A stretch of 64,000 nt of DNA, taken from a virus. This document shows, in pieces, positions 6,106 to 62,776 of this stretch (positions are counted from its first letter, which is position 1; every line of letters starts with the position of its first letter). The notes below the pieces were generated by a model. It was not told the DNA's origin. It was given only the letters and a program-made list of their open reading frames with translations, and did not search any database. The translations under genes and the position numbers were made by a program. The stretch lies in IMG/VR virus record IMGVR_UViG_3300020048_000017, positions 96,001 through 160,000 of that record. The stretch is one strand, 5' to 3'.

Positions 6106-7085
6106 TAAAATAAGTCGTCTGCGGTAATTGATTTGTTTTTTCTTGAGTAACTAACAGGTCTTTGATCAAAGAAATCAAAATGCGCGTCACTAATAAGACC
6201 TTCGTTAAACCATTTGGTTTTCTTTAGGATCGCCGGATCAACTTCAAATTGTGGTTGATACAAAATGCCAGAAAGAGATTGGTTAAGTCTTTCTTTGGTG
6301 AACTGTTTAATTTGTTCGACGCTGATGAAATCTAAATCTCCTTCATCAAAAATCCAATCAATTACTTTTTCTTCAGCCGCGTAAGCTCTGGTGCTGTAAT
6401 TAATAACCATTGTCTCTAACTCTGGTGTAAAAAACTCTGGGTTACTTTTACGAATATCATTGATCACGAATGTTCCGAAGGCCGCGTGAATACTTTCTTC
6501 TTTGGAAGTGGCCGCTACAGCATTGTTGATATCTTTTAATTTCTTTCTATGTTTATTGAAAGACATAAGAATAAAAAACTGACTAAATAAAGAAACGTTT
6601 TCGATAAAAAGTGAAAACAAAATAATTGATTTCAAAAACTTCTCCTCAAGACGAGCATTCGAAAAATCTTTATACTTCTTCAAATAATTGTGCCTGTCTA
6701 TAATAACTGGCTCATCATACATCTTAGCGAACTCTTCGTTCAGACCCAAGATTTCCAAAAGGTGGGAGTAAGCTCTACTGTGTCTAACCTCTGATTCCGC
6801 GAATGTTGCGCCCACCATAAACACCTCAGGCTTGGGAAGGTGGTCTCCGATTTTTAGAAAAAACGCCTTTACAGATACTTCAATTTGTGAAATAAGTAAG
6901 AGGCATTTTGTAACAATTTTTCTTTCGTAGTCGGAAAGTTCGTGATGGAATTCCTGAACATCTTGGGTGAAAGACCACTCCTTATGGGTCCAGTAAGACT
7001 CTCCGATGGCGTCACAAAATTGTTCTAGTTCAGGGTAGCAAAATGGTTTAAAATGTTCGCGGGGTTCAAAAAGACTTCGTTGCAT
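6105..7085 (-). CDS. nrdB: ribonucleotide reductase class I beta subunit
   Basis: W...D, EVRHSRAYS, IENVSLFSQF, EESIH di-metal ligands; FDFF near the C-terminus. Confidence 0.95.
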   Translation of the reverse strand: MQRSLFEPREHFKPFCYPELEQFCDAIGESYWTHKEWSFTQDVQEFHHELSDYERKIVTKCLLLISQIEVSVKAFFLKIGDHLPKPEVFMVGATFAESEVRHSRAYSHLLEILGLNEEFAKMYDEPVIIDRHNYLKKYKDFSNARLEEKFLKSIILFSLFIENVSLFSQFFILMSFNKHRKKLKDINNAVAATSKEESIHAAFGTFVINDIRKSNPEFFTPELETMVINYSTRAYAAEEKVIDWIFDEGDLDFISVEQIKQFTKERLNQSLSGILYQPQFEVDPAILKKTKWFNEGLISDAHFDFFDQRPVSYSRKNKSITADDLF

Positions 7086-7096
7086 AGGAATATAAA

Positions 7097-7102
7097 TTAC
7101 AC
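7097..7102 (-). promoter_or_regulatory. GTGTAA motif (candidate phage late promoter)
   Basis: 11 nt before the nrdB ATG, directly after a terminator. Confidence 0.55.
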
Positions 7103-7105
7103 TTC

Positions 7106-7139
7106 AAAAAAGGGCATCAAACATTTAATTTGAATGCCC
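7106..7139 (-). terminator. intrinsic terminator
   Basis: GGGCATTCAAA/TTTGATGCCC stem followed by T6 on the minus strand, 40 nt after the stop at 7180. Confidence 0.75.
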
Positions 7140-7179
7140 CGATTTTTCTCGAAAATACGAGATAAGTTGTGTATTGCGG

Positions 7180-7395
7180 TTAGCAAAATTTACCCAATTC
7201 AGTAAAGTTAATTGGGTCGAGTTTGATTTGATTACTACCTACCGACCTTGTCTCACCAGTTACCTTATGTAGGACTAAAGCCAAGTGTTCTTGGATAACT
7301 TGAATCTGATCTTCATCGAGACTTTCTAGTTGTTCTCCGGATTCGGCGATTTCAAAATAACCAGAAAGCCAGTAGCAAAAATTTTCTGGGCTCAT
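7180..7395 (-). CDS. hypothetical phage protein
   Basis: MSPENFCYWLSGYFEI...QIQVIQEHLALV, a pattern recalled from small phage proteins. Confidence 0.7.
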   Translation of the reverse strand: MSPENFCYWLSGYFEIAESGEQLESLDEDQIQVIQEHLALVLHKVTGETRSVGSNQIKLDPINFTELGKFC

Positions 7396-7730
7396 TTATC
7401 TAATTCGTGTTTTTTACCTTTTCTCTTTTCAGAGTAGTTTTTAAATTCTTTTTTCAAGACGGGATCTTTGTCTCCAATTTTATCTGCCCTTTTTTCGGAC
7501 CACTCTTTTGATCTATCCCAGAGGTCACCGATGGTCCCCCCGTTAGAAGTCTTCTTCAAGAAATCTCTCTCTGAGAAAACGTCAACGTTAGAATCTATAG
7601 AAGCTTGTGGCACTGTCCATACGCGAATCCAAGAAACTCCGTCTTCTTCATACGAATGTTGATCCTTCATCTTTTGGAAGATTTCTTTAATCTCTTCCGT
7701 GTCTGGGTGCTTGTATAGATACGCAGGCAT
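7392..7730 (-). CDS. FmdB-like regulatory protein lacking Cys
   Basis: Likely start MPAYLYKHPDTEEIKEIFQKM (TAATG overlap at 7730); MPxYxY opening like FmdB ribbons. Confidence 0.6.
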   Translation of the reverse strand: MPAYLYKHPDTEEIKEIFQKMKDQHSYEEDGVSWIRVWTVPQASIDSNVDVFSERDFLKKTSNGGTIGDLWDRSKEWSEKRADKIGDKDPVLKKEFKNYSEKRKGKKHELDK

Positions 7731-8803
7731 TATAGGTGTTCTAAAATTGTGTCTACGGTTCTGTCCCAAGTAAATTCTTTGGCTAGAGCTTCACCCTTAG
7801 GGTTCGGTGTTTTCGCCAGTTCTGCCGCTTTATCAAGAGCTATGTCAAGATCTTCATCTGAAAAATCTGCCCACTCACCTTGATTAACGAAATAACCTTG
7901 TCTAAAAAAGACTCCGTCTTCTGCCTGTCTAGTTCCACTAGGTTCAACCAAGATGGCATTCGACTCGTTGGCAAAATCTTTATGAACGTGTGCGTTTAAA
8001 CACACCGACCACTTCCCGAGGCATAACGATTGAAACGTAGGTAAGTTAAAACCTTCGCAAGAAGACATTCCCGTCAAGTCTACGTCCGCAGCATTAAGCA
8101 CATCATTATACTCTTCAAGCGTTTTTCTAAAGTCAACAAAGTTTACATTGAAGGGCTGCTCTCCGTTAGGAAACGTAGAAGCAATTAGAGACTTCATTTG
8201 CTGTTCAGGTAAGAACGCATTTGAAATTGCGCAGTTCAACGCAAAGTTATCTTTATTGCCAAATTTTTTGATCCACGCGGACAGAATCCTGATAGTGTTT
8301 TTTCTAGATTCCAGCTTGCCATATAAGCCGAAGGTTTTGACATTTTTTCCTAAATACCTTTTGCCGGTTTTATGAAAATGATAGCCATCAAAACCTAAGG
8401 GACAATATGCCACATTCGTAAGTCCGTGATTTTCAAAAACTTTCTTTGTGTAATTTGAAGTAACGAAGACAGTTTTTTGCTGCTTCAAAATATTAGTCTC
8501 TACACTTGTTAGGCGATCCGTTTCGTGGAACGTTAAACTACAAGGTTGTTCTTGAAAAGACTCTGATAGCCCTTGGATATGCCAGAGTTTTAAGCCTTTA
8601 TCTTTTCTGGAATGATCCGTAATCCCCCTCTCAATAGAACTTGTCAGCCAAGCCATGAACTCCTCAGAGACGTTGAAGGCTGACAGATCAGTGCCCCCAA
8701 TTGGGAGGACTGAGACTTCTTCGCCTCTTTCAAATAGTGTCCGAAGAATATTGAAAGAGACGTTCCCAAAGCTTAGGGAATTGAGAGGTAAATTAAAGGT
8801 CAT
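7730..8803 (-). CDS. GT-B fold glycosyltransferase (family 4-like)
   Basis: TFHETD, VFVTSNYTK, PLGFD, GKLESRKN, SSCEGFNLPTFQSLCLGK, FTWDRTV. Confidence 0.85.
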   Translation of the reverse strand: MTFNLPLNSLSFGNVSFNILRTLFERGEEVSVLPIGGTDLSAFNVSEEFMAWLTSSIERGITDHSRKDKGLKLWHIQGLSESFQEQPCSLTFHETDRLTSVETNILKQQKTVFVTSNYTKKVFENHGLTNVAYCPLGFDGYHFHKTGKRYLGKNVKTFGLYGKLESRKNTIRILSAWIKKFGNKDNFALNCAISNAFLPEQQMKSLIASTFPNGEQPFNVNFVDFRKTLEEYNDVLNAADVDLTGMSSCEGFNLPTFQSLCLGKWSVCLNAHVHKDFANESNAILVEPSGTRQAEDGVFFRQGYFVNQGEWADFSDEDLDIALDKAAELAKTPNPKGEALAKEFTWDRTVDTILEHL

Positions 8804-8804
8804 C

Positions 8805-9218
8805 TTAGAAAGGAACGTCGTCGTCGTCAGCGACCTCTACAACAGCGGGTTTAGAAGGTGTTGATGATGCTGAAGCTTGTTCTGCGTCGTCTTTTTTACC
8901 ACCAACGAAAGTGAAGTTCTCACCGATAACCTTAAGTTTCGATCTCTTCTCTCCTTCGTTACCTTCCCAAGTGTCTAGTGACAGACGGCCTTCGATAAGA
9001 AGTTGGCGACCTTTCTTAGTATGTTCCGCGAGTATCTCGGCCTGTTTACCCCAGAAGGTAACATCTACAAAAGTTGTTTCCTCTTTCTTCTCTCCGTTAG
9101 AAGTAAACTGTCGATTCAGAGCGATACCGAGATCTACTACGGAGTTGCCTGATGAACCGATGGTTCTTAGTTCTGGATCTCTAGTGAGATTCCCCATGAT
9201 GATGACTTTATTTAGCAT
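8805..9218 (-). CDS. ssb: single-stranded DNA-binding protein
   Basis: MLNKVIIMGNLTRDPELR...FWGKQAE...KKGRQLLIEGRL, acidic tail DDDDVPF. Confidence 0.97.
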   Translation of the reverse strand: MLNKVIIMGNLTRDPELRTIGSSGNSVVDLGIALNRQFTSNGEKKEETTFVDVTFWGKQAEILAEHTKKGRQLLIEGRLSLDTWEGNEGEKRSKLKVIGENFTFVGGKKDDAEQASASSTPSKPAVVEVADDDDVPF

Positions 9219-9504
9219 AATTCAGTTTTTTTATTGTGAGTTCTATAACTAGTGAAAATATAGCACCTGCTAGAGCGATTGTCAAGGACTTACTTAGTAA
9301 AAGATTTACCCAGAAGGCAAAGCAGTATGCGCAGAATAATGGGTATAGTAAATTATATACTACTTTTTCAAAGATTTTTGATGGCTGAGATTTTGCAATA
9401 TTGAACCTTTCTTTTGTGGGGTCGCTAACAATTTTCCCTAAATCTGTATAATTATAAAGATAGAATAACGAGTATGCGAATAGGAATTGTATCAAGATTT
9501 CCAT
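9208..9504 (-). CDS. small membrane protein with CxxC
   Basis: Hydrophobic segments; LFCAYCFAFWV. Confidence 0.6.
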   Translation of the reverse strand: MEILIQFLFAYSLFYLYNYTDLGKIVSDPTKERFNIAKSQPSKIFEKVVYNLLYPLFCAYCFAFWVNLLLSKSLTIALAGAIFSLVIELTIKKLNYAK

Positions 9505-10076
9505 AATTTTTCAATTGCGTCGGTTAAAGATTTAACGCTGTTGGTGAGCTTTTCTAAGTCGGTTTCGAGTCTTAGCACGATATCCGCTTTTTCAAAAAGG
9601 ATTGGATCGTTCTTCTCCTCGTCTTGGTTAGGCGGCTGTAAAAGAGATCCGTCAAGTAAGAACCTAGATAAATGAATCAGCGTTCCATCGTGAGAATGAA
9701 GCCAATCTACTTCATCAAAATCATATTCGGCATATCTAATATCTGTAACAATAGCTATGTCAAACGGTTGCTCTTGCTGAGCCTTTAACATTTTCTCGTA
9801 AAGAAGTGAAGTCCAATAAGTTCCGTTACTTTGAATTCTTTTAGCTCTGCCAAATTCAACCAATAATGGCCGGATCAATTCCTTGTCTTCGGGAGAGCAA
9901 TTTAAAATATCAATATTGAAATTATCGAACAGAAAGATACGCATCGCGTCTTTCAATTCATCAGCTAATGCAAACCTTTTAGCTACCAAACCTTCATTTT
10001 TATAAGCTTTGATTAAATTTGCGCAAAGAGTATCTTTTCCAACCCTTGCCACTCCTGTTATTCCGATTACTCTCAT
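9492..10076 (-). CDS. deoxynucleoside monophosphate kinase
   Basis: IGITGVARVGKDT, FALADELK, RPLLVEFG, VTDIRY...E. Confidence 0.88.
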   Translation of the reverse strand: MRVIGITGVARVGKDTLCANLIKAYKNEGLVAKRFALADELKDAMRIFLFDNFNIDILNCSPEDKELIRPLLVEFGRAKRIQSNGTYWTSLLYEKMLKAQQEQPFDIAIVTDIRYAEYDFDEVDWLHSHDGTLIHLSRFLLDGSLLQPPNQDEEKNDPILFEKADIVLRLETDLEKLTNSVKSLTDAIEKLWKS

Positions 10077-10573
10077 GTGAGTGAAAAAGTGTTATCGTCG
10101 CCACCTTCCTCATCAGAAGGTTCAGTGATGTGTAAGGGAACGTCTGTAGAGAACGTTAGGTTGAGAACTGATATTAAAGCCTCTAAAACGGGCGCATCGA
10201 TATCTAAAGGATTTAATGGTCTAAATAAACCAACATCTTTTATCAAGGAGGGCATCACAGTATTATAAAGATAAGCGGCACTGGATAAGCTGTCCAATGA
10301 TAGCGTGAAAGTCTTTTTGTAATTCCAAATTTCGTCCCTTAAGAAGTAAGTGAGAGTTCCCGTTTGTCCAGAATACTCAACGAGAACACCTTCTTTTTCT
10401 AGCTCCTTCAGAGCTAAATGCTGAAGTTTATCCTTAGGTCTTACTAATTTCGTGGGATCTACCTCGATGCCCATGGTCTGGTCGTTTATAAAAAGGTCAA
10501 GACACTCATTTCTGAAGAAGTTGAGAGATCGGCTCTCGCCATCATTATCGCACATAATTAGTTGAATATCCAT
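10073..10573 (-). CDS. hypothetical protein
   Basis: ATGA overlap with the kinase gene. Confidence 0.6.
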   Translation of the reverse strand: MDIQLIMCDNDGESRSLNFFRNECLDLFINDQTMGIEVDPTKLVRPKDKLQHLALKELEKEGVLVEYSGQTGTLTYFLRDEIWNYKKTFTLSLDSLSSAAYLYNTVMPSLIKDVGLFRPLNPLDIDAPVLEALISVLNLTFSTDVPLHITEPSDEEGGDDNTFSLT

Positions 10574-10594
10574 AATATCAATAATTATAGCCCA

Positions 10595-10849
10595 TTACTC
10601 TAAATTGTCAAGGAAAATTTTAGAGAAACCATAACTTTTCACAATTTCTATAACGGGCTTGGCCGCAATCTGATTATAATCTGGGGGAAAGTCCACCCCT
10701 AGAAAGTCACACATATCCATATTCCACGGGGACATTTTGGACATTATGTTTTTAGAAAAAGGAATCTGTCCTCGTTCAATCTTGGAAAGAGTTTTTAGAC
10801 AAGACTTTAATCTTGAGTGTTTGATCTTACGGATTCTCTTAGATATCAT
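10595..10849 (-). CDS. hypothetical basic protein
   Basis: 84-aa ORF starting immediately after the candidate ncRNA. Confidence 0.5.
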   Translation of the reverse strand: MISKRIRKIKHSRLKSCLKTLSKIERGQIPFSKNIMSKMSPWNMDMCDFLGVDFPPDYNQIAAKPVIEIVKSYGFSKIFLDNLE

Positions 10850-10850
10850 A

Positions 10851-11198
10851 GGTTCCCGCTCTCTAATTCTTATTAATTCCCTTTAATTCTCTTAGCCACC
10901 TCTATTTCTTTTAGGAAATAGAGATTAAGCAATACTGGTCCATAGCGAAGGCAAGGCTTCGCCTGAACCAATACGCCTAATCCCGAATACTTCTTTTGAG
11001 GTCTTCAGTAGATTACAACTATTGTTGCAGCAATATTGGTGTTAAACAAACGAAATCCTGTAACATCAATCCTTAGACCCTCCAATATAAACTTGTAGGA
11101 TTTCGTCTGGTCCGGCTTGTTTTTCAGGTATGGTCTCCCTAGCGACAAGATGGTCCGAAGTCTTTTTAACCCAGCTCTTGGACTCGGAGCGGGAGGAT
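10851..11198 (-). ncRNA. candidate large structured non-coding RNA (~345 nt), class not recognised
   Basis: Only large ORF-free gap in the block. Terminal 8-bp pairing 11187-11194/10854-10861, internal stems (10900-10908/10915-10923; 10929-10950/10957-10976; 10998-11004/11075-11082; 11035-11044/11061-11070), 10-bp loop pairing 11050-11059/11097-11106. G-U pairs favour the minus strand; promoter just upstream. Confidence 0.6.
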
Positions 11199-11205
11199 TA
11201 TGATC

Positions 11206-11233
11206 ATTTTACACCTTAATTTTGAAAAGTCAA
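11206..11233 (-). promoter_or_regulatory. sigma70-type promoter overlapping a GTGTAA motif
   Basis: TTGACT (11233-11228), 16 nt, TAAAAT (11211-11206); GTGTAA at 11214-11209; predicted start ~11199, just before the terminal stem. Confidence 0.6.
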
Positions 11234-11242
11234 GAAGAAAAA

Positions 11243-13642
11243 TCAAAATCGAGCAGTGTGGAGGCCTCTCCCGACTTCATAAACTGGAAGCTGATTACAA
11301 ACTAAGGCCTCTCCGTTAGCAAAGATACTCTGGGAGTAAGACAGGGATGTATTAAAAAACTCCAACGTTTGAGAACTTCCAGAGGCATATTTAGTAGCAA
11401 AAAGATGACCTTTGTAAAATAACGTCCAGCTTTGAGAAGACTCTGGTAAATAACCCCCTAAAAATGAATTGTCTCTTCGAAAATTACTTAAGTTAGAACA
11501 ACTATTAAGTAATAATACATTTAAAGTATTTTTTTGTTCGATTCTCGATTCTCCATCCTTCTTATACACGGTGTAATATATTTTTAAATTCTTATCATTG
11601 ATTATTGAAGATTCGGTAGTGAACTCAGGTAAATAAGATATTAAAATGGTTGTAGAGATTGTTTTTGTAGACAAAGCATCCAAAAAATAAGAACTTGTAT
11701 AAGAACCAATAGGTGTTTCCCCGTCAGTTTCGTAATTAGAGTCGTAACCAGTCGATGCAAAACTTATAGGATTATTTGTAGACCCAATTTTAGTAATAGA
11801 TGCGGTTTCGTAATCAACAAAAGGTAAACATGCGAGGCCTAAGACTTTAGTTTGATTTTTATTTCTATAAAGATAAGAAGAAGTTTTAGGTGTTAAAACA
11901 TCTTGTTCATTGTAAGATATTTCGACGTACTCATATAATTTTTCAGAATTAAACCCAATAACACCCGCTTTAAATTCAGGAACGATTGCGTAATACCCAC
12001 CAAAGTAGTTTTCAAAAAAGACATTTGATAATTGACCAAGTGAGTTGGTTCCGAACTCCTGAAATGTCTTTGCTTCCGATACACTAAACGAGTATCCCTC
12101 TTGCCCAAGTATTTGATAAGACTTTCCTATATAATTATCACCATCTCTAGACTCCCACTCTCCAGCCGTTGAATAATCGGTGGAAAAAGCAGAAGAGCTA
12201 TCTTCAGGATTAAAATAACTTGTGATATTATTAATATAATTACTAGCAAAAGTAGTGTCAAACTTTTTAATAACATCTATCTCGGTTGTTGTGAAATTTT
12301 TAGGATCGCTTTTTAATAAAATAACTTCTTTTACAATACTGTACGATGATCTTATTCCCGACCTAGTTCCAACTCCATACTCTTTATTAACATTATTTAA
12401 AACCCCCCCAGAAGACCCTCGTTCGATTAGAGAAAACGAACGTATTTCTTGAATACGAAAGGTCGAATCGTCCGACCTAGTAAGATTAATAGTGTCTTCG
12501 TAATTAATAGTGGTTGGAGCAATTATTTCGAAACTAACCACAGAATCGTTCCCAGATCCCACTTGCGCCGAAATCGAGAAACTGCCCATGTTTATAGAGG
12601 TGCCTTTATCCGTCCACTTATATTGACCAGCAGTTGTTTTAAGGCATTGAGAGAATTTAAAAAATGGAGAAATACGGCTATAAGCGCCAGCGTAATTAAA
12701 AACTTGAAATCTTTCTAATTCATTATGATAATCTTCAACAAAAGTATTGATAGTATACCTGCCTACTTGGCGACCACCACTAGGAAGTTCGTATTCTTCA
12801 GTTTGAGTCCCGAAACTTTCCCCAAAGAATTCATAAGTATACGTAAAAACAGATGGAATAAAAGTTTTAGTTTTGCAAGGAACAAAATTTATAACAGTGG
12901 TTGTTCCAGTTGTTGTGTAAGAGCCATTTGAAATCGAAAATGTATTTTTATCTGGGTATGTCGCGATATAATTAATAGTAGTGGGTAGGTTATTAATTGA
13001 AAATTCTTTTGTATAAGTGCTATTATAATTTTCTCGAACAGCAACCTTAAAAGTATTGTTCGAAGTATTTTCAAAAACTGTTGAAAAACTGGAGCTGGAA
13101 ACTTCTCCATTTACGACATTACTTACAGTAGACTTGTAAGATGCTCCACTTTCATTCCTAACATTATAATATTTAGTAACCGCAGACCCTATAACTGTGG
13201 TTTCGTTATTAATTTCATATCCGTTGTCAAAATCGTCGCCCGTCTCAACTCTTGAAGTTTGAGTTTCCCCATTAACGGTGGTGGTGACTATATTAGTTTG
13301 ACCCCATTCCCCAGTATGGACAACTGAAGAATTATTCTTATACTCATAAGTCCTAGCCACAGTGATCCCGCCTTGTTGCGTCTGATTTACACCATCTACC
13401 TGCTCTTCGGCCTGAGTGGTTCTACGAACTTCTTCGTTTAAAAATTGAGTATTTTTAACTTCTTTAGAGTTATTATGAGAAGTTGTTAAAGTCTCATTAT
13501 CGACAGCGTTTGAATCCACGGTTTTGCCGACCTCGACCCTGCTAAAAGAAGTTATATAAGAGCGAGTTGTAAGATAGTTTTCCGACTTACCATAACTAAC
13601 AGGGAAGGATTCCGCCGTAGTATATTTAGATTCATAACGCAT
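11243..13642 (-). CDS. Ser/Thr/Asn-rich putative virion (tail tip/fibre) protein
   Basis: 799 aa, strongly S/T/N/Y-rich beta-like composition, last gene of the tail operon; no family recognised. Confidence 0.55.
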   Translation of the reverse strand: MRYESKYTTAESFPVSYGKSENYLTTRSYITSFSRVEVGKTVDSNAVDNETLTTSHNNSKEVKNTQFLNEEVRRTTQAEEQVDGVNQTQQGGITVARTYEYKNNSSVVHTGEWGQTNIVTTTVNGETQTSRVETGDDFDNGYEINNETTVIGSAVTKYYNVRNESGASYKSTVSNVVNGEVSSSSFSTVFENTSNNTFKVAVRENYNSTYTKEFSINNLPTTINYIATYPDKNTFSISNGSYTTTGTTTVINFVPCKTKTFIPSVFTYTYEFFGESFGTQTEEYELPSGGRQVGRYTINTFVEDYHNELERFQVFNYAGAYSRISPFFKFSQCLKTTAGQYKWTDKGTSINMGSFSISAQVGSGNDSVVSFEIIAPTTINYEDTINLTRSDDSTFRIQEIRSFSLIERGSSGGVLNNVNKEYGVGTRSGIRSSYSIVKEVILLKSDPKNFTTTEIDVIKKFDTTFASNYINNITSYFNPEDSSSAFSTDYSTAGEWESRDGDNYIGKSYQILGQEGYSFSVSEAKTFQEFGTNSLGQLSNVFFENYFGGYYAIVPEFKAGVIGFNSEKLYEYVEISYNEQDVLTPKTSSYLYRNKNQTKVLGLACLPFVDYETASITKIGSTNNPISFASTGYDSNYETDGETPIGSYTSSYFLDALSTKTISTTILISYLPEFTTESSIINDKNLKIYYTVYKKDGESRIEQKNTLNVLLLNSCSNLSNFRRDNSFLGGYLPESSQSWTLFYKGHLFATKYASGSSQTLEFFNTSLSYSQSIFANGEALVCNQLPVYEVGRGLHTARF

Positions 13643-14093
13643 TTATTTTCCAAGTATAAAAATTTTTAAAGTTCCTTTGACCCGCTTGAGTGGGAATAAC
13701 GCCATCGACCCTAGATACTATAGGAATTACAGAAAGGGGCTCTTTAAATCTAGCCAATGCCTGACCATTTGAAATTCTGGCAAAAAATATATCAAATTCC
13801 GCTGGTGGTATATTTTCAGCATCATCAATAGGTTCCGGCATGGTGGTGGAAAATTGTAATTCAAAACTAGATATAGATCCACCCGAACAACTTACGGATA
13901 ATATTAAAAATCCGTTAGATTGAACTTCTACCCATTCGTTTATATTAGAAGCCGTTATATTATTAATAATACCATCCAAAAGACGATAGTAAACCGTATC
14001 GTCCTCTCGCTTAGTCTCTAAATTCCAGATTTGACAAGACTGATTAGAGCCCCCTTCGAAATATGCTTTTTTAGGTCTCCAAGGTTTTGCCAT
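13632..14093 (-). CDS. putative tail-tip protein
   Basis: Coupled to flanking structural genes. Confidence 0.5.
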   Translation of the reverse strand: MAKPWRPKKAYFEGGSNQSCQIWNLETKREDDTVYYRLLDGIINNITASNINEWVEVQSNGFLILSVSCSGGSISSFELQFSTTMPEPIDDAENIPPAEFDIFFARISNGQALARFKEPLSVIPIVSRVDGVIPTQAGQRNFKNFYTWKINAL

Positions 14094-16549
14094 TATCTTC
14101 CAGATATAAAAATCTCCTCCAAGTTGTAGCCGTCATATACACTTAACCTTGCTATTGATGGGGCTAAATTTAAACTCCTATCATAATACACTTCAATGAA
14201 AGGAGAGTTAAATATATTTTGTTTAGTAATCATCCCCCCAGAATTTGAAAATTTGCCAGAAACACCTCCTTCGAACCAGCCGCTTTCTTTGTAGTCATAA
14301 AAAGTATTTCCAATTCCCGTTTTAAGATTCCACATATCCACAAATGGGATTGGAACCTCCGGACCCAACATTCTCCCAGAACCGATGCCCGTCCCTTCTA
14401 ACAAGGTAAAGACCCCAGAAACAGCACCTTCAACAAGTCCCGTTCCAGTAACGCAAGTCGTTCCCGTAAGGCATCTAGATATTCCGTAATCCCCAGTAAT
14501 AGGAGCTTGTCCTGAAGTTATGCCTGAGGAATAAGGAACGAGAAACAATCTCATAAAGTTCGTATCGTAAGCAGGATCATCAGAAGTTTCTGGAAGTATT
14601 ATCCTTCCCGAAATGTTAATCTCCCCTGTGAAATCGAACCCTGTTAGATTTGTAAAGTTCTTTTTATAAACTGTAAAATTTCTAAAAGCATATTCATCTA
14701 ACTCCACAGTCTCTTCCCTTTCGAATTCGTTAATATAACCCGTTTGCAAAATGGCTCCATTTTGCCGATCACTTACAGTAATAGCTATAGAAGATACATC
14801 TAAAGCCACTCCAAATGGATCTAGTTCATAAATCCATCCAGACAGCCAGACGGAACAAGGTTTACCAGATCCTATTAAATAATCTTGGAATTGGGAGAAC
14901 TTAAATTCGTATAAATTCCCTGATTGAACACCATAATAGTCTGTTAGTCTTGTTACCGTAGGGGCCACATCTCCAACATATACTCCAGACCGTTTTACAC
15001 ATTCAATATATTCATAGTTATGCAAACCTGTTAAAGACCCTATTAAAAAATCACACCCAGAAGAAGTGTTTATCGATCCTGTCGCAGTCCCCCGAATAAC
15101 TCCTGAAAAATAATTGTCAGAATTTGGTATTAAACCAGAACCTGTAATATTTATTGGCTCTGAATAATAACCAGTTGGAACATAATAAGCAGTAAAAAAA
15201 GTAGGTATAAAACCACTCCATCCATCTTCCTTGTAAAAATAATTCTTATTTTCTAAAATAGAAGTTGCCCCGCTATATTCCCCGCATATAGTGGTAGTTA
15301 TTTCCTCTGAGATTAATTGGCTTCCGATTCCAGCGATCCTCCCTTCGGAACTATATAAATAACCCGTTTGTAAAAGATTCCCAGTAACGTCAATATTAAC
15401 TCCCCCCGAAGTAACAACCCCCGTGTAAGTATTTTGGAAAACGTAGTATCCACTACCTTCTAAAACCGTGCCGGTTAAATTGACATTTACATAATCATTA
15501 TAAATTTGACCAGAGGACGGACCAGAATAAACTAATCCTGTTCTTAAGACGTTACCCGTCCAAACGGACAGCCCCGTGTGACAATAAGTTTTACTAACTG
15601 CCCCAGTAGCGCTTCCCGAGAAAACATAACCAGATAGGCCAGTTACGTCTGTCAAGTAGTTTACAACGGGTTTACTCATAGTCCCACAACCCTTTAACAT
15701 GCCTGATATATTACCGGAAACTATACCAGTCTCTAAGGATCTTATTTGAGAAGATAGTCCTCCAGAAACGAAACTTAATTCAACTTGCAAATTCCTATCA
15801 GGGCCTTGAAAAAACGAAGTTACGTTGAAAAGCTTACTACCCGCAGATTTAAAAAAAGTATCTTGGTTAGGAGATACAGAGAAGAATTCAGACCCATCGA
15901 CAAATGATGATGGGATATTTGCATTGACCGAAAATGGACCGAAATTAGAGATAAAGTCAATCTTCACACCTGATGTCGGAGTTGGGGTATTTTCCAAACT
16001 AACCAACCTAACTAAACATCCGTTATCACAGATCCCAGAGTCCCACCCAGTTACGGCAAACTTAGAGGAAGAGTTAACGTCTATAGATGCGTCAAAAATC
16101 AGGAATCTCCTATCGGGAAATCCATTAGTAAGCAATCCCGAAACAATCGTGTTGCCAGAATTAGAACTATTTAATATAGCAAAATCTAAAACCGGCTCTT
16201 TACCACTAACAATTACATCACAATCTATAACAGAATTTGTAGATATAGAAAGGTTCTCAAAAACCCCCGTAGGCTTAGTCCCGCCGTTTATCAATAGATT
16301 AGAGCCGTCATAAAGATTATAAAGGTTGTTTGAATAAAATACTTTTAAATTCTTAGAACCGTTGTTGATCGATCCGAATTGTTCATCACAGATAGAAAGT
16401 AGACCTTCTCTGCACGAAACACCAAAAAAAGAATCCCCACTCAACCCTATGTCGAAATCCCCAATATTATTTTGAAAATTAACACGAATATCCATAACTC
16501 CACCCGATTGAGTGGATATGCTACGGTTATTATTTCCTGAAATTATCAT
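14093..16549 (-). CDS. SG/TG-rich putative tail structural protein
   Basis: 818 aa, repeated SG/TG dipeptides, beta-rich; position in the tail operon. Confidence 0.55.
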   Translation of the reverse strand: MIISGNNNRSISTQSGGVMDIRVNFQNNIGDFDIGLSGDSFFGVSCREGLLSICDEQFGSINNGSKNLKVFYSNNLYNLYDGSNLLINGGTKPTGVFENLSISTNSVIDCDVIVSGKEPVLDFAILNSSNSGNTIVSGLLTNGFPDRRFLIFDASIDVNSSSKFAVTGWDSGICDNGCLVRLVSLENTPTPTSGVKIDFISNFGPFSVNANIPSSFVDGSEFFSVSPNQDTFFKSAGSKLFNVTSFFQGPDRNLQVELSFVSGGLSSQIRSLETGIVSGNISGMLKGCGTMSKPVVNYLTDVTGLSGYVFSGSATGAVSKTYCHTGLSVWTGNVLRTGLVYSGPSSGQIYNDYVNVNLTGTVLEGSGYYVFQNTYTGVVTSGGVNIDVTGNLLQTGYLYSSEGRIAGIGSQLISEEITTTICGEYSGATSILENKNYFYKEDGWSGFIPTFFTAYYVPTGYYSEPINITGSGLIPNSDNYFSGVIRGTATGSINTSSGCDFLIGSLTGLHNYEYIECVKRSGVYVGDVAPTVTRLTDYYGVQSGNLYEFKFSQFQDYLIGSGKPCSVWLSGWIYELDPFGVALDVSSIAITVSDRQNGAILQTGYINEFEREETVELDEYAFRNFTVYKKNFTNLTGFDFTGEINISGRIILPETSDDPAYDTNFMRLFLVPYSSGITSGQAPITGDYGISRCLTGTTCVTGTGLVEGAVSGVFTLLEGTGIGSGRMLGPEVPIPFVDMWNLKTGIGNTFYDYKESGWFEGGVSGKFSNSGGMITKQNIFNSPFIEVYYDRSLNLAPSIARLSVYDGYNLEEIFISGR

Positions 16550-20935: not shown

Positions 20936-22558
20936 TTAGACGTAAAGCACCCCGCTAGGAAAAACTGAATTTATTTTAGAAGTCCAAGAGTATGAGAACG
21001 AAAAGCCCCTACCCTCATCTCCTATATTCTTTTCAAAAGACTGGCTGGTTAAAACAATGTCCTGTCCAGATACAAACCTAGAAGCCACTTGCTCAACCAT
21101 ACATTTTGTTACCACCTCTCCGGAAGCTAGAGATTCACATTTTTTGACCAAAGAGTTTCCGTTAATGGTAAATGTCGCCCTATTTAGATAATTTAAATCA
21201 TAAATAGAATAATGACCCTTGCAGATAGTCGGCCTTGCTGAATATTGAGGGATCGCCGGTTTTACGTCTATAGAATACCCAAAAGACTGTAAAGGATGAG
21301 GAGGAATTAAAGATAAGTCTAAATTCTCAAATTCCACAGATACGGTAAGTTGGCAAGAATCCTTGTTTTGAGAAACGCCGCTAGAGATAGGAGAGATTTT
21401 TAGAAACGTTCCAGAATTGTAATATTCGTTCCTTTCAGCAGCAAGTTGGTAATAGTTAAAAGAATTTGCGGCAGCTTGAAGAGCTTCCCAGCCAGCCTCG
21501 TTATTACACTTGCAATTTCCTCTCCATCCAAAATCGACTTCTATACTCGCGGTTTTAGAGGCATTTAGTTCGTCAAGATTCATCGAAAAAGAATCTTTGA
21601 AAAAGGGATTTGGTCTAGGGTCGTCATCAAAAGAATAAGTAAAATTTATAGAATTCTCCAGAGGGTCCTCTTCAATATTTACAGAAAGTTCTTTTGTGTT
21701 AAGTTCTCCGTCGAAAAGTTGAGAGTAGTGACCAGAGGTAATTTCATAAAAATCTAAAGTAGACATTCTAGACCTCAGAGCCCCGAGTTCAACATTATGA
21801 CCCCCAATTAAAGAACCTGCCAAACTTGCTTTAACGACACCTTCTTCTGAACCAGAGTCAAAACTAGAAGAGTATCTGAGAAGGCCCTCTCCGCTAAGAA
21901 CCGGATCGTAATCCCAAGTTTCAGATATAGAACACGAAGCATTAAGCCTGTCTACCGTTTGAGAAACCGTTTTTAAAACAGAATTGGAGACTCCCCCAGA
22001 AGAGATAAAATTCGGAGCAACTAAACCCTGAAGCCCAGAATGGGCCTGACAAAAATTGATAGCATTCTGAAGCGCATCCGTTTGGCTCGCGGAAGTGTTG
22101 AAACCTTTTGCAGAGACGTCATGCGAAATAGACACTATGTCATCACCTTGTTGACTAAAGGAAAAAACATTCTGAGGATCTAAGACTCCGTAGAAACCAC
22201 TGAAGAATCCACTAGGATAAGCTTCCAACTCTATAGAGAACGGAAGGAGGTAGGAGTAGTTAGACTCTTGAAAAGAGATACCTTTTATAAAGGTGACTGG
22301 TTGAGAATAAATAGTCTGCCCCTCTTCCTCAATTCGTAGTTCTTGGAAATTTTTTGAAAAACCAGATAGCAACAGGGCTTGTCTATTAAGCATTTCTCCA
22401 AAATTTGGACAGCCAGTTAAGATACCTTCTAAAGAGATACTTTCAGCGGTAGCCCATCTCTTTCCATACCTGACGAAACTCTCCTTTCTGGAAAGAAGAG
22501 GAGTGGGACATAATCCAGAAAAAATCGGAATATCTCCGTAATAAATTTCAGTTCTCAT
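20936..22558 (-). CDS. putative distal tail protein (paralogue A)
   Basis: 540 aa, repeated SHDVSAKG / SISETWDY-type strands; second gene after TMP. Confidence 0.5.
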   Translation of the reverse strand: MRTEIYYGDIPIFSGLCPTPLLSRKESFVRYGKRWATAESISLEGILTGCPNFGEMLNRQALLLSGFSKNFQELRIEEEGQTIYSQPVTFIKGISFQESNYSYLLPFSIELEAYPSGFFSGFYGVLDPQNVFSFSQQGDDIVSISHDVSAKGFNTSASQTDALQNAINFCQAHSGLQGLVAPNFISSGGVSNSVLKTVSQTVDRLNASCSISETWDYDPVLSGEGLLRYSSSFDSGSEEGVVKASLAGSLIGGHNVELGALRSRMSTLDFYEITSGHYSQLFDGELNTKELSVNIEEDPLENSINFTYSFDDDPRPNPFFKDSFSMNLDELNASKTASIEVDFGWRGNCKCNNEAGWEALQAAANSFNYYQLAAERNEYYNSGTFLKISPISSGVSQNKDSCQLTVSVEFENLDLSLIPPHPLQSFGYSIDVKPAIPQYSARPTICKGHYSIYDLNYLNRATFTINGNSLVKKCESLASGEVVTKCMVEQVASRFVSGQDIVLTSQSFEKNIGDEGRGFSFSYSWTSKINSVFPSGVLYV

Positions 22559-24180
22559 CCGATGGTTTTATCAAATAACTCTTTATGTTTAACGTAATTA
22601 TAAGACACTTTTAAATTAAACCTTTTATCGACAGATGAGAAACTATAAGACGCATCATTTATAAATCCACAACGACCAGATTCAGGTTTTTCGAGATAGT
22701 CATACCCAAGATCTAAAAAATCATTAAGCGATGGAGTCCCCGTGGAAAGTATATTTACACTTGTGGAAATCTCTGATAGAGACGAATTCCCACTTCTACA
22801 ACCCCCCACGATCTCTTCTCCAAACCCAAGAATTTTAAACGTCTGATGAAGGGCAACCCCCTCGTTAACAGATATAGAGTGTCTCACCTCGGTAAAAGGG
22901 TCGGGCACTTTGTAAGCATTATCGCAAGAATAGTCGCGAGAGTAAGAAATTTGGCCTTCTGATTCAGAATCGTTGATAGAGAATTTAATTGGAACAAATC
23001 CCGAACAACATAATTGTCCCGCACCAGAAACGATATTCGCTATTCTAGCACCAGAGTTAGTGAGCATTGACTGGTAACAGTTCTTTGCGTTAGTATACTT
23101 TTGGTTATCAGGATACGTTCTTTTACCAAGACCTTTAATCTCAACTTTTTCAGAAATAACAGCCGCGCTAGTTGAGGAATTAGAGACGTTGTGAGTAATT
23201 CTGGTAATACAACCTGTGGAAATTGAATTGTCGTTACTGTAAGTAACATCGTAATCGATCATCCCAACAAACTCGTTAAATGAAACGCTTTGATTTACTG
23301 GCGAATTTATTAGCGGGCACCCGATATCATCGACAAAATTATAGTTAGATAAGACCCCACTGCACCTTGAGAATGTCCCTACTATAGAGCCGTCATAGCC
23401 GATCAAGGCGGATGTTATTTTCGGGCGAGTCGCCGCAAGTATACTACCTTTTTCAGTAACTACGGTTGAGTTATTCTCTTTAGTAAGTGAGTGTGCATAT
23501 TTCCAGATGAAAGGATCTCCAGATTGAAAGGCGAACTTTTCAGAAAAGGTATATGCGAAATTTATCGTATCATAAGACTCTGAGTAAATTCTGTTTCCAG
23601 AGCTGTAATAGGAAGGGTAGAAAACCTCCAGATCAGAGATGTTCATTCCGTTACCGAAAATAATGTCCGCTATATTTTTTGCAGTCTGGGTAGGATTAGT
23701 CTCAACACCGCTTTCCAAGGACAAGTTAAGGCTTCGAGAGTATTCGAAAGTTTGATCGGCACCTTTGTTAAAATCCCAAGATTCGGAAAAGTTTTGAAGA
23801 AAATGAATATCTTCCGCTTGGATACCGCTTACACCAGAATAATATTCACCATATACGTTGAACAAGTCCAGCTTTTCACATACTATAAAAGAGATGGAGT
23901 ATTTCTTGTCCCTTACATCCACGCCTTGATCGTAATCTATATTAGTTATATAGCCCGACCCAAAAAGTTGACCATTAAGAAATATAGGCTCGTAGTCTTT
24001 TAAATACGAAACTTGAGAGTTTATTTGGTTAGTGATTCCCGAAACCCCAGAGAAATTTTGATAATCAGTAAGTCGCCCTTTAACTGAGTAATTTTTCTCT
24101 TTTCTATATGACAGAACGTCACCAAGACTTACTAAGTTTTGGTCAAAGGATAGAAGTTCTGCACATTCTATGGAGATCAT
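22555..24180 (-). CDS. putative distal tail protein (paralogue B)
   Basis: 541 aa, FSESWDF / TFSEKFAF-type strands; directly follows TMP (ATGA). Confidence 0.5.
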   Translation of the reverse strand: MISIECAELLSFDQNLVSLGDVLSYRKEKNYSVKGRLTDYQNFSGVSGITNQINSQVSYLKDYEPIFLNGQLFGSGYITNIDYDQGVDVRDKKYSISFIVCEKLDLFNVYGEYYSGVSGIQAEDIHFLQNFSESWDFNKGADQTFEYSRSLNLSLESGVETNPTQTAKNIADIIFGNGMNISDLEVFYPSYYSSGNRIYSESYDTINFAYTFSEKFAFQSGDPFIWKYAHSLTKENNSTVVTEKGSILAATRPKITSALIGYDGSIVGTFSRCSGVLSNYNFVDDIGCPLINSPVNQSVSFNEFVGMIDYDVTYSNDNSISTGCITRITHNVSNSSTSAAVISEKVEIKGLGKRTYPDNQKYTNAKNCYQSMLTNSGARIANIVSGAGQLCCSGFVPIKFSINDSESEGQISYSRDYSCDNAYKVPDPFTEVRHSISVNEGVALHQTFKILGFGEEIVGGCRSGNSSLSEISTSVNILSTGTPSLNDFLDLGYDYLEKPESGRCGFINDASYSFSSVDKRFNLKVSYNYVKHKELFDKTIG

Positions 24181-62441: not shown

Positions 62442-62776
62442 TGAAATTCGAACTAGTTGAAATTTTGAAATGGTATGACGGGGCTCCAGAACTTTTCCTT
62501 TTAGAAGACTGCTTCGGGGGGTTTTATCTGGGATATTACTATGAAACCAATACAGACGTTGCGGTTCCTTATGAATCTTTTCTGGTTGTAAATGTTGATA
62601 TCTCTGAATTTGTAGATATAAAATATAAAAACCTTCCTGTTTTAAATTGTTTCGAGAAGTCTTATGATCGATTTTTTTATAAAATGACGACCACCTCGAA
62701 CACGGTATCTTTTAAAGATTTATTCCTTTGTGAGATTACTCCAAATATGTTTCCTCCGATATCTTATACTTTATGA
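62441..62776 (+). CDS. hypothetical protein
   Basis: TAATG coupling; EILKWYDGAPELFLLED. Confidence 0.55.
   Translation: MKFELVEILKWYDGAPELFLLEDCFGGFYLGYYYETNTDVAVPYESFLVVNVDISEFVDIKYKNLPVLNCFEKSYDRFFYKMTTTSNTVSFKDLFLCEITPNMFPPISYTL

Follow-up and report, generated by a model that had tools for sequence, protein, structure and literature searches.

A 393-nt gap between two genes of a large uncultured phage holds a genuine, evolutionarily constrained structured RNA of an undescribed family. The gap occupies positions 10850–11242 of the 64,000-nt stretch that we analyzed (the window, bases 96001–160000 of the 179,178-bp IMG/VR virus record IMGVR_UViG_3300020048_000017, which has direct terminal repeats) and separates the stop codon of a 799-amino-acid (aa) gene from the start codon of an 84-aa gene. 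A first-pass annotation, made from the letters of the window, had proposed here a structured noncoding RNA with its own promoter. Comparison with related phages bears out a structured RNA element with an architecture that differs in part from the one first drawn. A long bulged stem (P8) and a perfect hairpin (P9) belong to the conserved fold, but the two helices that were thought to close the structure do not. What the lineages share is a core of about 300 nt, running from 11200 to 10898 on the minus strand and folding into about nine helices backed by covariation, in which P1 crosses P4 as a long-range pseudoknot. An A-rich tail without structure comes after the core.

The element is present at full length in five lineages: the window and the loci that we call L008, L009, L013 and L018 (L009 is identical to L010 and L011). 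Partial copies are found in L006, a half-length sixth lineage, and in L012, a short fragment of the L018 lineage. A word-indexed protein search with the small protein encoded next to the gap returned near-identical copies (L003–L005) and a contig of 517 nt, L006, that encodes a small protein with 69% identity to that of the window. When these two small proteins were used as queries in an exhaustive HMMER search of 1.84 billion representative proteins, four more distant relatives came to light. The relatives share a gene order consisting of a gene of about 780 aa, an open reading frame (ORF)-free gap of 358–391 nt, the small basic gene, a gene of 162–193 aa, a dNMP kinase gene and an SSB gene. 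A profile of the neighboring dNMP kinase yielded 80 related IMG/VR loci (L014–L093), with kinases 32–50% identical to the window's. When the element was searched for with nhmmer, every lineage was recovered, and one of these 80 loci, L018, was positive (E = 3.6e-52). L018 has both the RNA and the small protein. The other 79 have a different arrangement of upstream genes and carry neither, so the two strictly co-occur.

The noncoding stretch is the best-conserved sequence of its neighborhood. Between lineages, the RNA core is 57–74% identical at the nucleotide level, compared with 36–50% for the small gene (29–39% in aa), 38–41% for the 799-aa gene (20–27% in aa) and 53–58% for the kinase gene; the flanking proteins of the lineages are merely 20–40% identical. 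The closer pair of L006 and the window gives the same picture at higher resolution. Upstream of the ATG, 169 of 179 noncoding positions are identical (94.4%), as against 173 of 252 coding positions (68.7%), with 51% of third codon positions differing. The drop in identity coincides precisely with the small gene's start codon.

Compensatory changes in homologous loci had been named by the first-pass annotation as the decisive test, and they are present. RNAalifold predicted 43 pairs from four sequences, and 94.5% of cells over those pairs were paired. Both sides had changed in 12 pairs, compared with 5.3 ± 1.6 in shuffled data, and none of 500 shuffles reached 12. Controls in which the partners were slid by one to three columns gave only 1–3 such pairs. 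With five sequences, both sides had changed in 16 of 61 predicted pairs. Compensatory changes above shuffle and slide controls, together with conservation above the flanks, are the generic mark of a conserved structured RNA, and the element shows both. The half-length copy fits this pattern, since all four of its substitutions in the P8 stem keep pairing by way of wobble (G·U to A-U, A-U to G·U, U·G to C-G and C-G to U·G), and its other substitutions fall in loops or joints, bar one in a terminal stem specific to the window.

Because MAFFT misplaces single-base indels in some stems, we added a strand-permutation test that needs no alignment within the stems. Invariant anchor motifs set the segments, and each lineage's 5' strand was matched in turn to the 3' strands of all lineages. 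For P4, the cognate strands beat all 119 other combinations (rank 1/120). P2, P9 and the outer stem of P8 each ranked 2/120, and the rank of P1, 12/120, was the lowest possible for that helix. A helix closing the 3' domain (P7) was weak, at 15/120. The multi-branch closing helix of the first-pass fold (10998–11004 with 11075–11082) ranked 32/120 and was good in just two of the five lineages, and we dropped it. Its proposed terminal closing stem, between 10854–10861 and 11187–11194, exists in the window's sequence and in its minimum free energy (MFE) fold but not as a family feature: the pairing is worth −17 kcal/mol in the window and −5.7 to −6.7 kcal/mol in the others, which is the level of mismatched partners.

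The RNA is predicted to begin with its first helix. The 5' strand of P1 (UAAUCCU, 11194–11200, minus strand, as are all features of the element) is the predicted 5' end of the transcript and pairs with 11067–11073. P1 keeps 7 bp in all five lineages, with a U-A pair of two lineages replaced by C-G in the other three and a U·G replaced by C-G in one. The hairpin P2 (11170–11193, 11193–11187 pairing with 11177–11170) follows at once; it has both sides changed in four of its seven pairs and an invariant loop, GUCC, at 11183–11180. Its 5' strand is the one that had been assigned to the terminal closing stem, and in all lineages it forms this local hairpin instead. The joining block GGUUAAAAAG (11162–11171), between P2 and P3, is identical in the window, L008, L009 and L013 and has one additional U in L018.

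The P3 domain (11111–11159) consists of P3 itself (11159–11155 with 11115–11111), P3a (11149–11145 with 11120–11116) and P3b (11141–11138 with 11128–11125). P3a and P3b are deleted in L009, where P3 shows two double changes, C-G to U-A and G-C to A-U. P3a has changed from G-C to A-U and from U-A to A-U. The coordinates of P3b come from the MFE fold; 83% of its cells are paired, and one pair has changed on both sides. One U·G pair of the domain is invariant in all five lineages.

P4 has 13 bp in the window, between CAGACGAAAUCCU (11097–11109) and AGGAUUUCGUUUG (11047–11059), with both sides changed in five columns across the five lineages. Its loop contains the most conserved block of the element, AAGUU..UUGRAG....UARGGRUUGAUG (11064–11094). 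P1 and P4 cross because this block supplies the 3' strand of P1 (11073–11067); the crossing makes a pseudoknot or, possibly, reflects two alternative states. After the 3' strand of P4 comes P4a, a short and variable hairpin read by hand, with 4–6 bp in L008, L009, L013 and L018 and 3 bp in the window. The stem of hairpin P5 (11014–11029, 11029–11024 with 11019–11014) differs in sequence from lineage to lineage with its pairing kept, and its loop is AAUA in the window, GAAA (a GNRA tetraloop) in L006 and GCAA in L008. The single-stranded block ACCUCAAA (10995–11002) is invariant in the five full-length lineages and in L006.

The 3' part of the core contains the two helices that had been seen from the start, both of them present in the sequence and in the MFE fold. 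The long bulged stem is P8, an irregular hairpin at 10922–10982 whose 3' strand carries the invariant motifs UAUGGAC and UUGCYURAU. A kissing pair between the GUCC loop of P2 and UAUGGAC is possible in all lineages; both sides are invariant, hence there is no covariation signal. The perfect 9-bp hairpin is P9 (10900–10923), with a CCUAAA loop and, in L008, changes from A-U to G-C and from U-A to C-G.

Beyond P9 lies the A-rich tail, 50 nt that are mostly unpaired (10850–10899), the last 25 of which have a mean unpaired probability of 0.50–0.69. It is conserved as a block in the window, L006, L013, L012 and L018. The tail holds two direct GAAUUAA repeats (at about 10867–10891), 3 nt apart and kept in most lineages, which could be a protein-binding site on RNA or DNA. 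Within the tail of the window lineage only, GAGCGGGA (10854–10861) lies 4 nt ahead of the small gene's start codon and offers the 5' strand of P2 another perfect partner of 8 nt; in L006, this pairing has one mismatch. P2 and this start-proximal helix exclude each other and could form a lineage-specific translational switch.

We take the minus strand as the RNA strand, in agreement with the first-pass annotation, because of fold z-scores, G·U pairs and the promoter. Sense z-scores ranged from −2.2 to −6.3 and antisense z-scores from −1.3 to −2.7, the sense value being the lower in all five lineages, and U·G pairs are invariant in several helices. RNAalifold energy was tried as a strand discriminator and failed (−25.1 sense vs. 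−28.1 antisense). Fold stability by itself is insufficient as evidence for an RNA, since other gaps score alike: 10851–11233 has a minus-strand z-score of −3.1 and a plus-strand z-score of −1.5, and values of −3 to −4.5 are common in the first 20 gaps of this genome that were scanned. Other ORF-poor gaps of the early region, outside the window (genome positions 8797–9212, 11485–11714, 12033–12188 and 22191–22726), have z-scores of −3.6 to −4.5, and one of them holds a tRNA gene.

The dedicated promoter that had been proposed is at 11206–11233 on the minus strand, with a −35 hexamer TTGACT (11233–11228), a 16-nt spacer, and a −10 hexamer TAAAAT (11211–11206) immediately preceded by GTG. As a bare pattern it is not significant, being found in 35 of 100 shuffles. 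Its support is comparative. TTGAC-N16/17-(GTG/GTT)TAnnnT is kept in all five lineages while the spacer and upstream sequence vary, and conserved hexamers with an unconserved spacer and upstream region are the expected footprint of a promoter. With its spacer of 16 nt, it belongs to a class of early promoters that this phage uses. The distance from the −10 hexamer to the first nucleotide of P1 is a constant 5 nt in every lineage, so the conserved fold begins at the predicted first transcribed nucleotides. From this conservation we infer that transcription starts at a dedicated early sigma70-type promoter, with a predicted start that coincides with the first helix.

The same spacing from the −10 hexamer is the one by which this phage starts many apparently leaderless early mRNAs at their ATG. 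About a dozen near-perfect TTGACA(A)-N15/16-TATAAT promoters occur genome-wide, 6–11 nt before an ATG (e.g., on the minus strand at window positions 10584–10611 and 4458), and no Shine-Dalgarno signal was found upstream of the phage's 272 ORFs. Promoters this close, together with the missing Shine-Dalgarno signal, suggest that most early mRNAs are leaderless and that the host probably does without Shine-Dalgarno-dependent initiation.

Downstream, the next promoter (TTGACA-N16-TATAAT, 10584–10611, minus strand) overlaps the 3' end of the 84-aa gene, and a second promoter-like site lies at the matching relative place in all five lineages. Because this overlap is common to all lineages, the content specific to the transcription unit would be the RNA and the small gene. 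No terminator-like site was found in 10500–11300, including between the RNA and the 84-aa gene; in 7000–15000 there were 4, compared with 5.1 expected from shuffles. The earlier term "noncoding RNA" is therefore apt for a structured RNA element and not for a free-standing gene, since nothing resembling a terminator precedes the 84-aa gene.

The RNA matches no known family, as had been surmised. We searched Rfam 15 (4227 models, including RNase P, 6S, SRP, tmRNA, group I and II introns, GOLLD, ROOL, OLE, HEARO, riboswitches and self-cleaving ribozymes) and obtained no match in the whole window at the gathering threshold. With a permissive filter and E up to 10 on 10700–11400, the only hit was a chance microRNA match to the P9 hairpin. 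The loci of the four other lineages had no Rfam match inside the RNA region, and ARAGORN found no tRNA or tmRNA in the window. Within the reach of these tools, the element represents a new RNA family.

Sequence searches further afield returned little. BLASTN of the gap against INPHARED phages gave no match, no relatives of the 799-aa and 166-aa proteins were found in IMG/VR, and exact and degenerate DNA patterns built from the conserved blocks found nothing in JGI metagenomes. Pattern searches of IMG/VR with the conserved blocks returned one chance 19-mer (L007) and the L018 contig. In GTDB genomes, a first conserved-block pattern had no match, and the two matches to a second pattern were rejected as chance, lying inside pyridoxal-phosphate-enzyme and chorismate synthase genes that encode a similar peptide. 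To judge by these searches, the family occurs only in large uncultured phages of a rare clade, which lack Shine-Dalgarno sequences and use consensus sigma70-type promoters.

A small protein gene in place of the RNA was also considered, in the form of a 47-codon frame with a TTG start (11148–11005). The frames lack an ATG and differ between lineages in start and length (25–47 codons), and the element region contains 1-nt and 2-nt indels as well as a 44-nt deletion, so we rejected this frame as the conserved feature. The frame through the most conserved block is open in four lineages, and in L018 a 2-nt deletion gives an in-frame UGA. Substitutions in that block are not concentrated at third codon positions, and one of its positions covaries with the 5' end of the RNA.

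The gene that follows the RNA in every lineage (10595–10849, minus strand) encodes the 84-aa protein, a basic, all-helical orphan. Its family comprises only six lineages among the 1.84 billion representative proteins, and in a protein cluster look-up every cluster was a singleton. AlphaFold2 gave an all-helical model with a mean predicted local distance difference test score (pLDDT) of 92.3, in which residues 4–25 form an N-terminal helix rich in lysine and arginine. The protein had no match in Pfam, no Foldseek match in the PDB at E ≤ 0.001, and nothing above chance in the ESM Atlas. The best Z in a VIA-align comparison of the model was 5.7, which is uninformative for a helical protein.

We favor, with a little less than even confidence, a reading in which the RNA is a structured 5' leader that acts in cis on the small gene and probably binds that gene's product, RNA and protein forming a control cassette where the replication module begins. 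The dedicated early promoter would give a transcript that opens with the pseudoknotted core and continues through the tail into the 84-aa gene. The RNA would act in cis as the structured leader of that gene and may serve as an operator or ribonucleoprotein scaffold to which the 84-aa protein binds, so that RNA and protein together would control the way into the replication and nucleotide-metabolism module. The output could be autoregulated translation, or modification of the transcribing polymerase as in the nut/N or put systems. A cis-acting leader appears the most likely role because there is no terminator, the tail is conserved, the small gene is always next, and RNA and gene strictly co-occur, being acquired and lost as a pair. 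Several points weigh against it. Most homologues were found by way of the small protein, so the co-occurrence is partly a matter of ascertainment, which the 80 kinase loci correct in part. There is no conserved start-sequestering helix and no conserved terminator/antiterminator pair, so that nothing like a classical expression platform can be seen. No RNA-binding fold is recognizable in the 84-aa protein. A core of about 300 nt is far above the size of known phage leader operators, and a free-standing RNA fits it at least equally well. Finally, the family rests on five or six lineages, and the alignment of P5–P8 is only partly resolved.

The strongest competitor, which we regard as possible and on balance rather unlikely, is a free-standing noncoding RNA that would act in trans as a ribozyme, a ribonucleoprotein scaffold, or a host-factor decoy or sponge, trimmed near the P9 end, with the small gene merely sharing its primary transcript. 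A large pseudoknotted core with many invariant single-stranded blocks is what catalytic and scaffold RNAs look like, and the structure opens exactly at the predicted 5' end of the transcript. A 350-nt leader would be anomalous in a phage with mostly leaderless early mRNAs, and the missing expression platform points the same way. This proposal has to contend with the lack of a terminator or other defined 3' end after P9, with conservation of the tail itself from P9 to the start codon, with the strict co-occurrence with the small gene, and with the fact that the RNA is unlike any known ribozyme or noncoding RNA model. In a related and similarly tentative version, the element would define a new class of large phage RNAs and be active in its own right, either as a ribozyme or as a ribonucleoprotein subunit with the 84-aa protein. 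As the first early product of the replication module, it would then act in trans on host or phage machinery and be more than a leader.

A riboswitch-like leader that binds a ligand and gates the small gene and the downstream nucleotide-metabolism genes is improbable. Its position is attractive, close to a promoter and upstream of the genes for dNMP kinase, SSB and ribonucleotide reductase, and the conserved core is pseudoknotted. A generic riboswitch was nevertheless rejected, since a conserved core is present and an expression platform is not: the start-proximal helix is confined to the window lineage, and neither a terminator nor a start-sequestering helix is conserved. Moreover, no riboswitch model in Rfam matches even when E is raised to 10, and typical aptamers have only a third to a half of the core's size. 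In all lineages a separate promoter serves the next gene, which would leave only the small gene to be gated. We give even less credence to a replication element, whether a transcript that primes synthesis at an origin (cf. ColE1 RNA II and the T4 origin transcripts) or DNA that is itself an origin or protein-binding site. The location exactly at the start of the replication module, the dedicated promoter and the AATTAA direct repeats of the tail would suit such a role. However, G·U-dependent covariation and strand asymmetry indicate constraint on an RNA fold and not on DNA, there are no iterons and no AT-rich unwinding region (the G+C content of the element is 0.40, equal to that of the genome), and the cumulative GC-skew profile has no turning point here. 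Least credible of all is an ordinary spacer or small protein gene whose likeness between phages reflects recent recombination. The nonsignificance of the promoter pattern taken alone, the similar z-scores of other gaps and the frame that stays open through the conserved block in four lineages would permit it, but the comparative data refute it: the element is kept in five lineages with flanking proteins so diverged that recent exchange is no explanation, compensatory changes are present, and indels, including the one behind the L018 UGA, break the frame.

The leader reading that we prefer recalls several known systems without placing the element in any of them. The HK022 putRNA is a nascent-RNA antiterminator that heads early phage operons and acts in cis on the transcribing polymerase (PMC9378689). 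Like it, the element appears to be a promoter-proximal structured RNA at the start of an early unit, with a predicted promoter 5 nt before P1 in each of the five lineages. A put site, however, has about 70 nt and two stem-loops, whereas the element has about 300 nt, about nine predicted helices and a predicted pseudoknot, with no similarity to put in sequence or model. Unlike at put, we found no terminators downstream that would need suppression, and the next gene has its own promoter. In the lambda nut/N and HK022 Nun systems, a small protein with an arginine-rich N-terminus binds the nascent leader RNA (PMC4124055). The resemblance here is a small basic protein with a lysine- and arginine-rich N-terminal helix, encoded directly after the putative leader RNA at the start of an early operon. 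The difference is again one of scale, boxB being a hairpin of about 15 nt, and no homology to N or Nun was detected in the 84-aa protein. On this comparison, size and predicted fold speak against membership in nut/N or put, and the likeness is one of position and logic.

GOLLD and ROOL are large, ornate RNAs that often occur in prophages (PMC12286853). The element shares with them a large size, an association with phages, support from covariation, and discovery by comparative genomics alone. GOLLD and ROOL have about 600–800 nt and are typically near tRNA genes; the element, in contrast, has about 300 nt, is tied to a small protein gene, and does not match their Rfam models. The P4 CI RNA and the P1/P7 c4 RNA are regulatory RNAs of about 70–80 nt that are processed from the leader of the operon they control and pair with repeated downstream targets, and C4 is represented in Rfam. 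What the element would share with them is derivation from a leader that heads a replication or early operon; it lacks such conserved repeats and has no Rfam match.

Bacterial and phage RNAs of at least about 300 nt with pseudoknots and many invariant unpaired nucleotides are rare, and past cases have often turned out to be ribozymes, ribonucleoprotein scaffolds or self-assembling RNAs. The present element is a tractable test case, with a predicted promoter and 5' end, a fold backed by covariation, and an obligate small-protein neighbor that has a confident model and no known relatives. It is a route to asking how large uncultured phages control entry into their replication program. That a clade with mostly leaderless mRNAs keeps exactly one long structured 5' region suggests that the cassette is functionally special.

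The setting of the element is as first described. With ORFs of at least 70 aa counted as genes, 10850–11242 is the sole gap of at least 150 nt in the leftward block, from about −18,000 to 53,287 in window positions. The gap sits where the virion module meets the replication module, and the gene content on both sides bears this out. Upstream on the minus strand are the 799-aa gene (11243–13642), which is the immediate neighbor, and virion genes, among them a terminase gene and an ORF of 2568 aa, the probable tape measure. Downstream on the minus strand are genes for dNMP kinase, SSB, a glycosyltransferase, ribonucleotide reductase and a UvsX-like recombinase.

In a different metagenome, a relative encodes a homologue of the 799-aa protein (L002:9065–10513) that is 87% identical and stops after 482 aa, about 105 nt before its contig ends. 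Either the C-terminus is truncated or mosaic, or the assembly breaks here; a search for shorter proteins matching the C-terminal residues 520–799 found none. ARAGORN placed 13 tRNA genes in the phage genome, all of them away from the RNA element. One of these, at genome positions 62666–62737 and outside the window, has a CUA anticodon, was labeled Pyl by the program, and resembles an amber suppressor.

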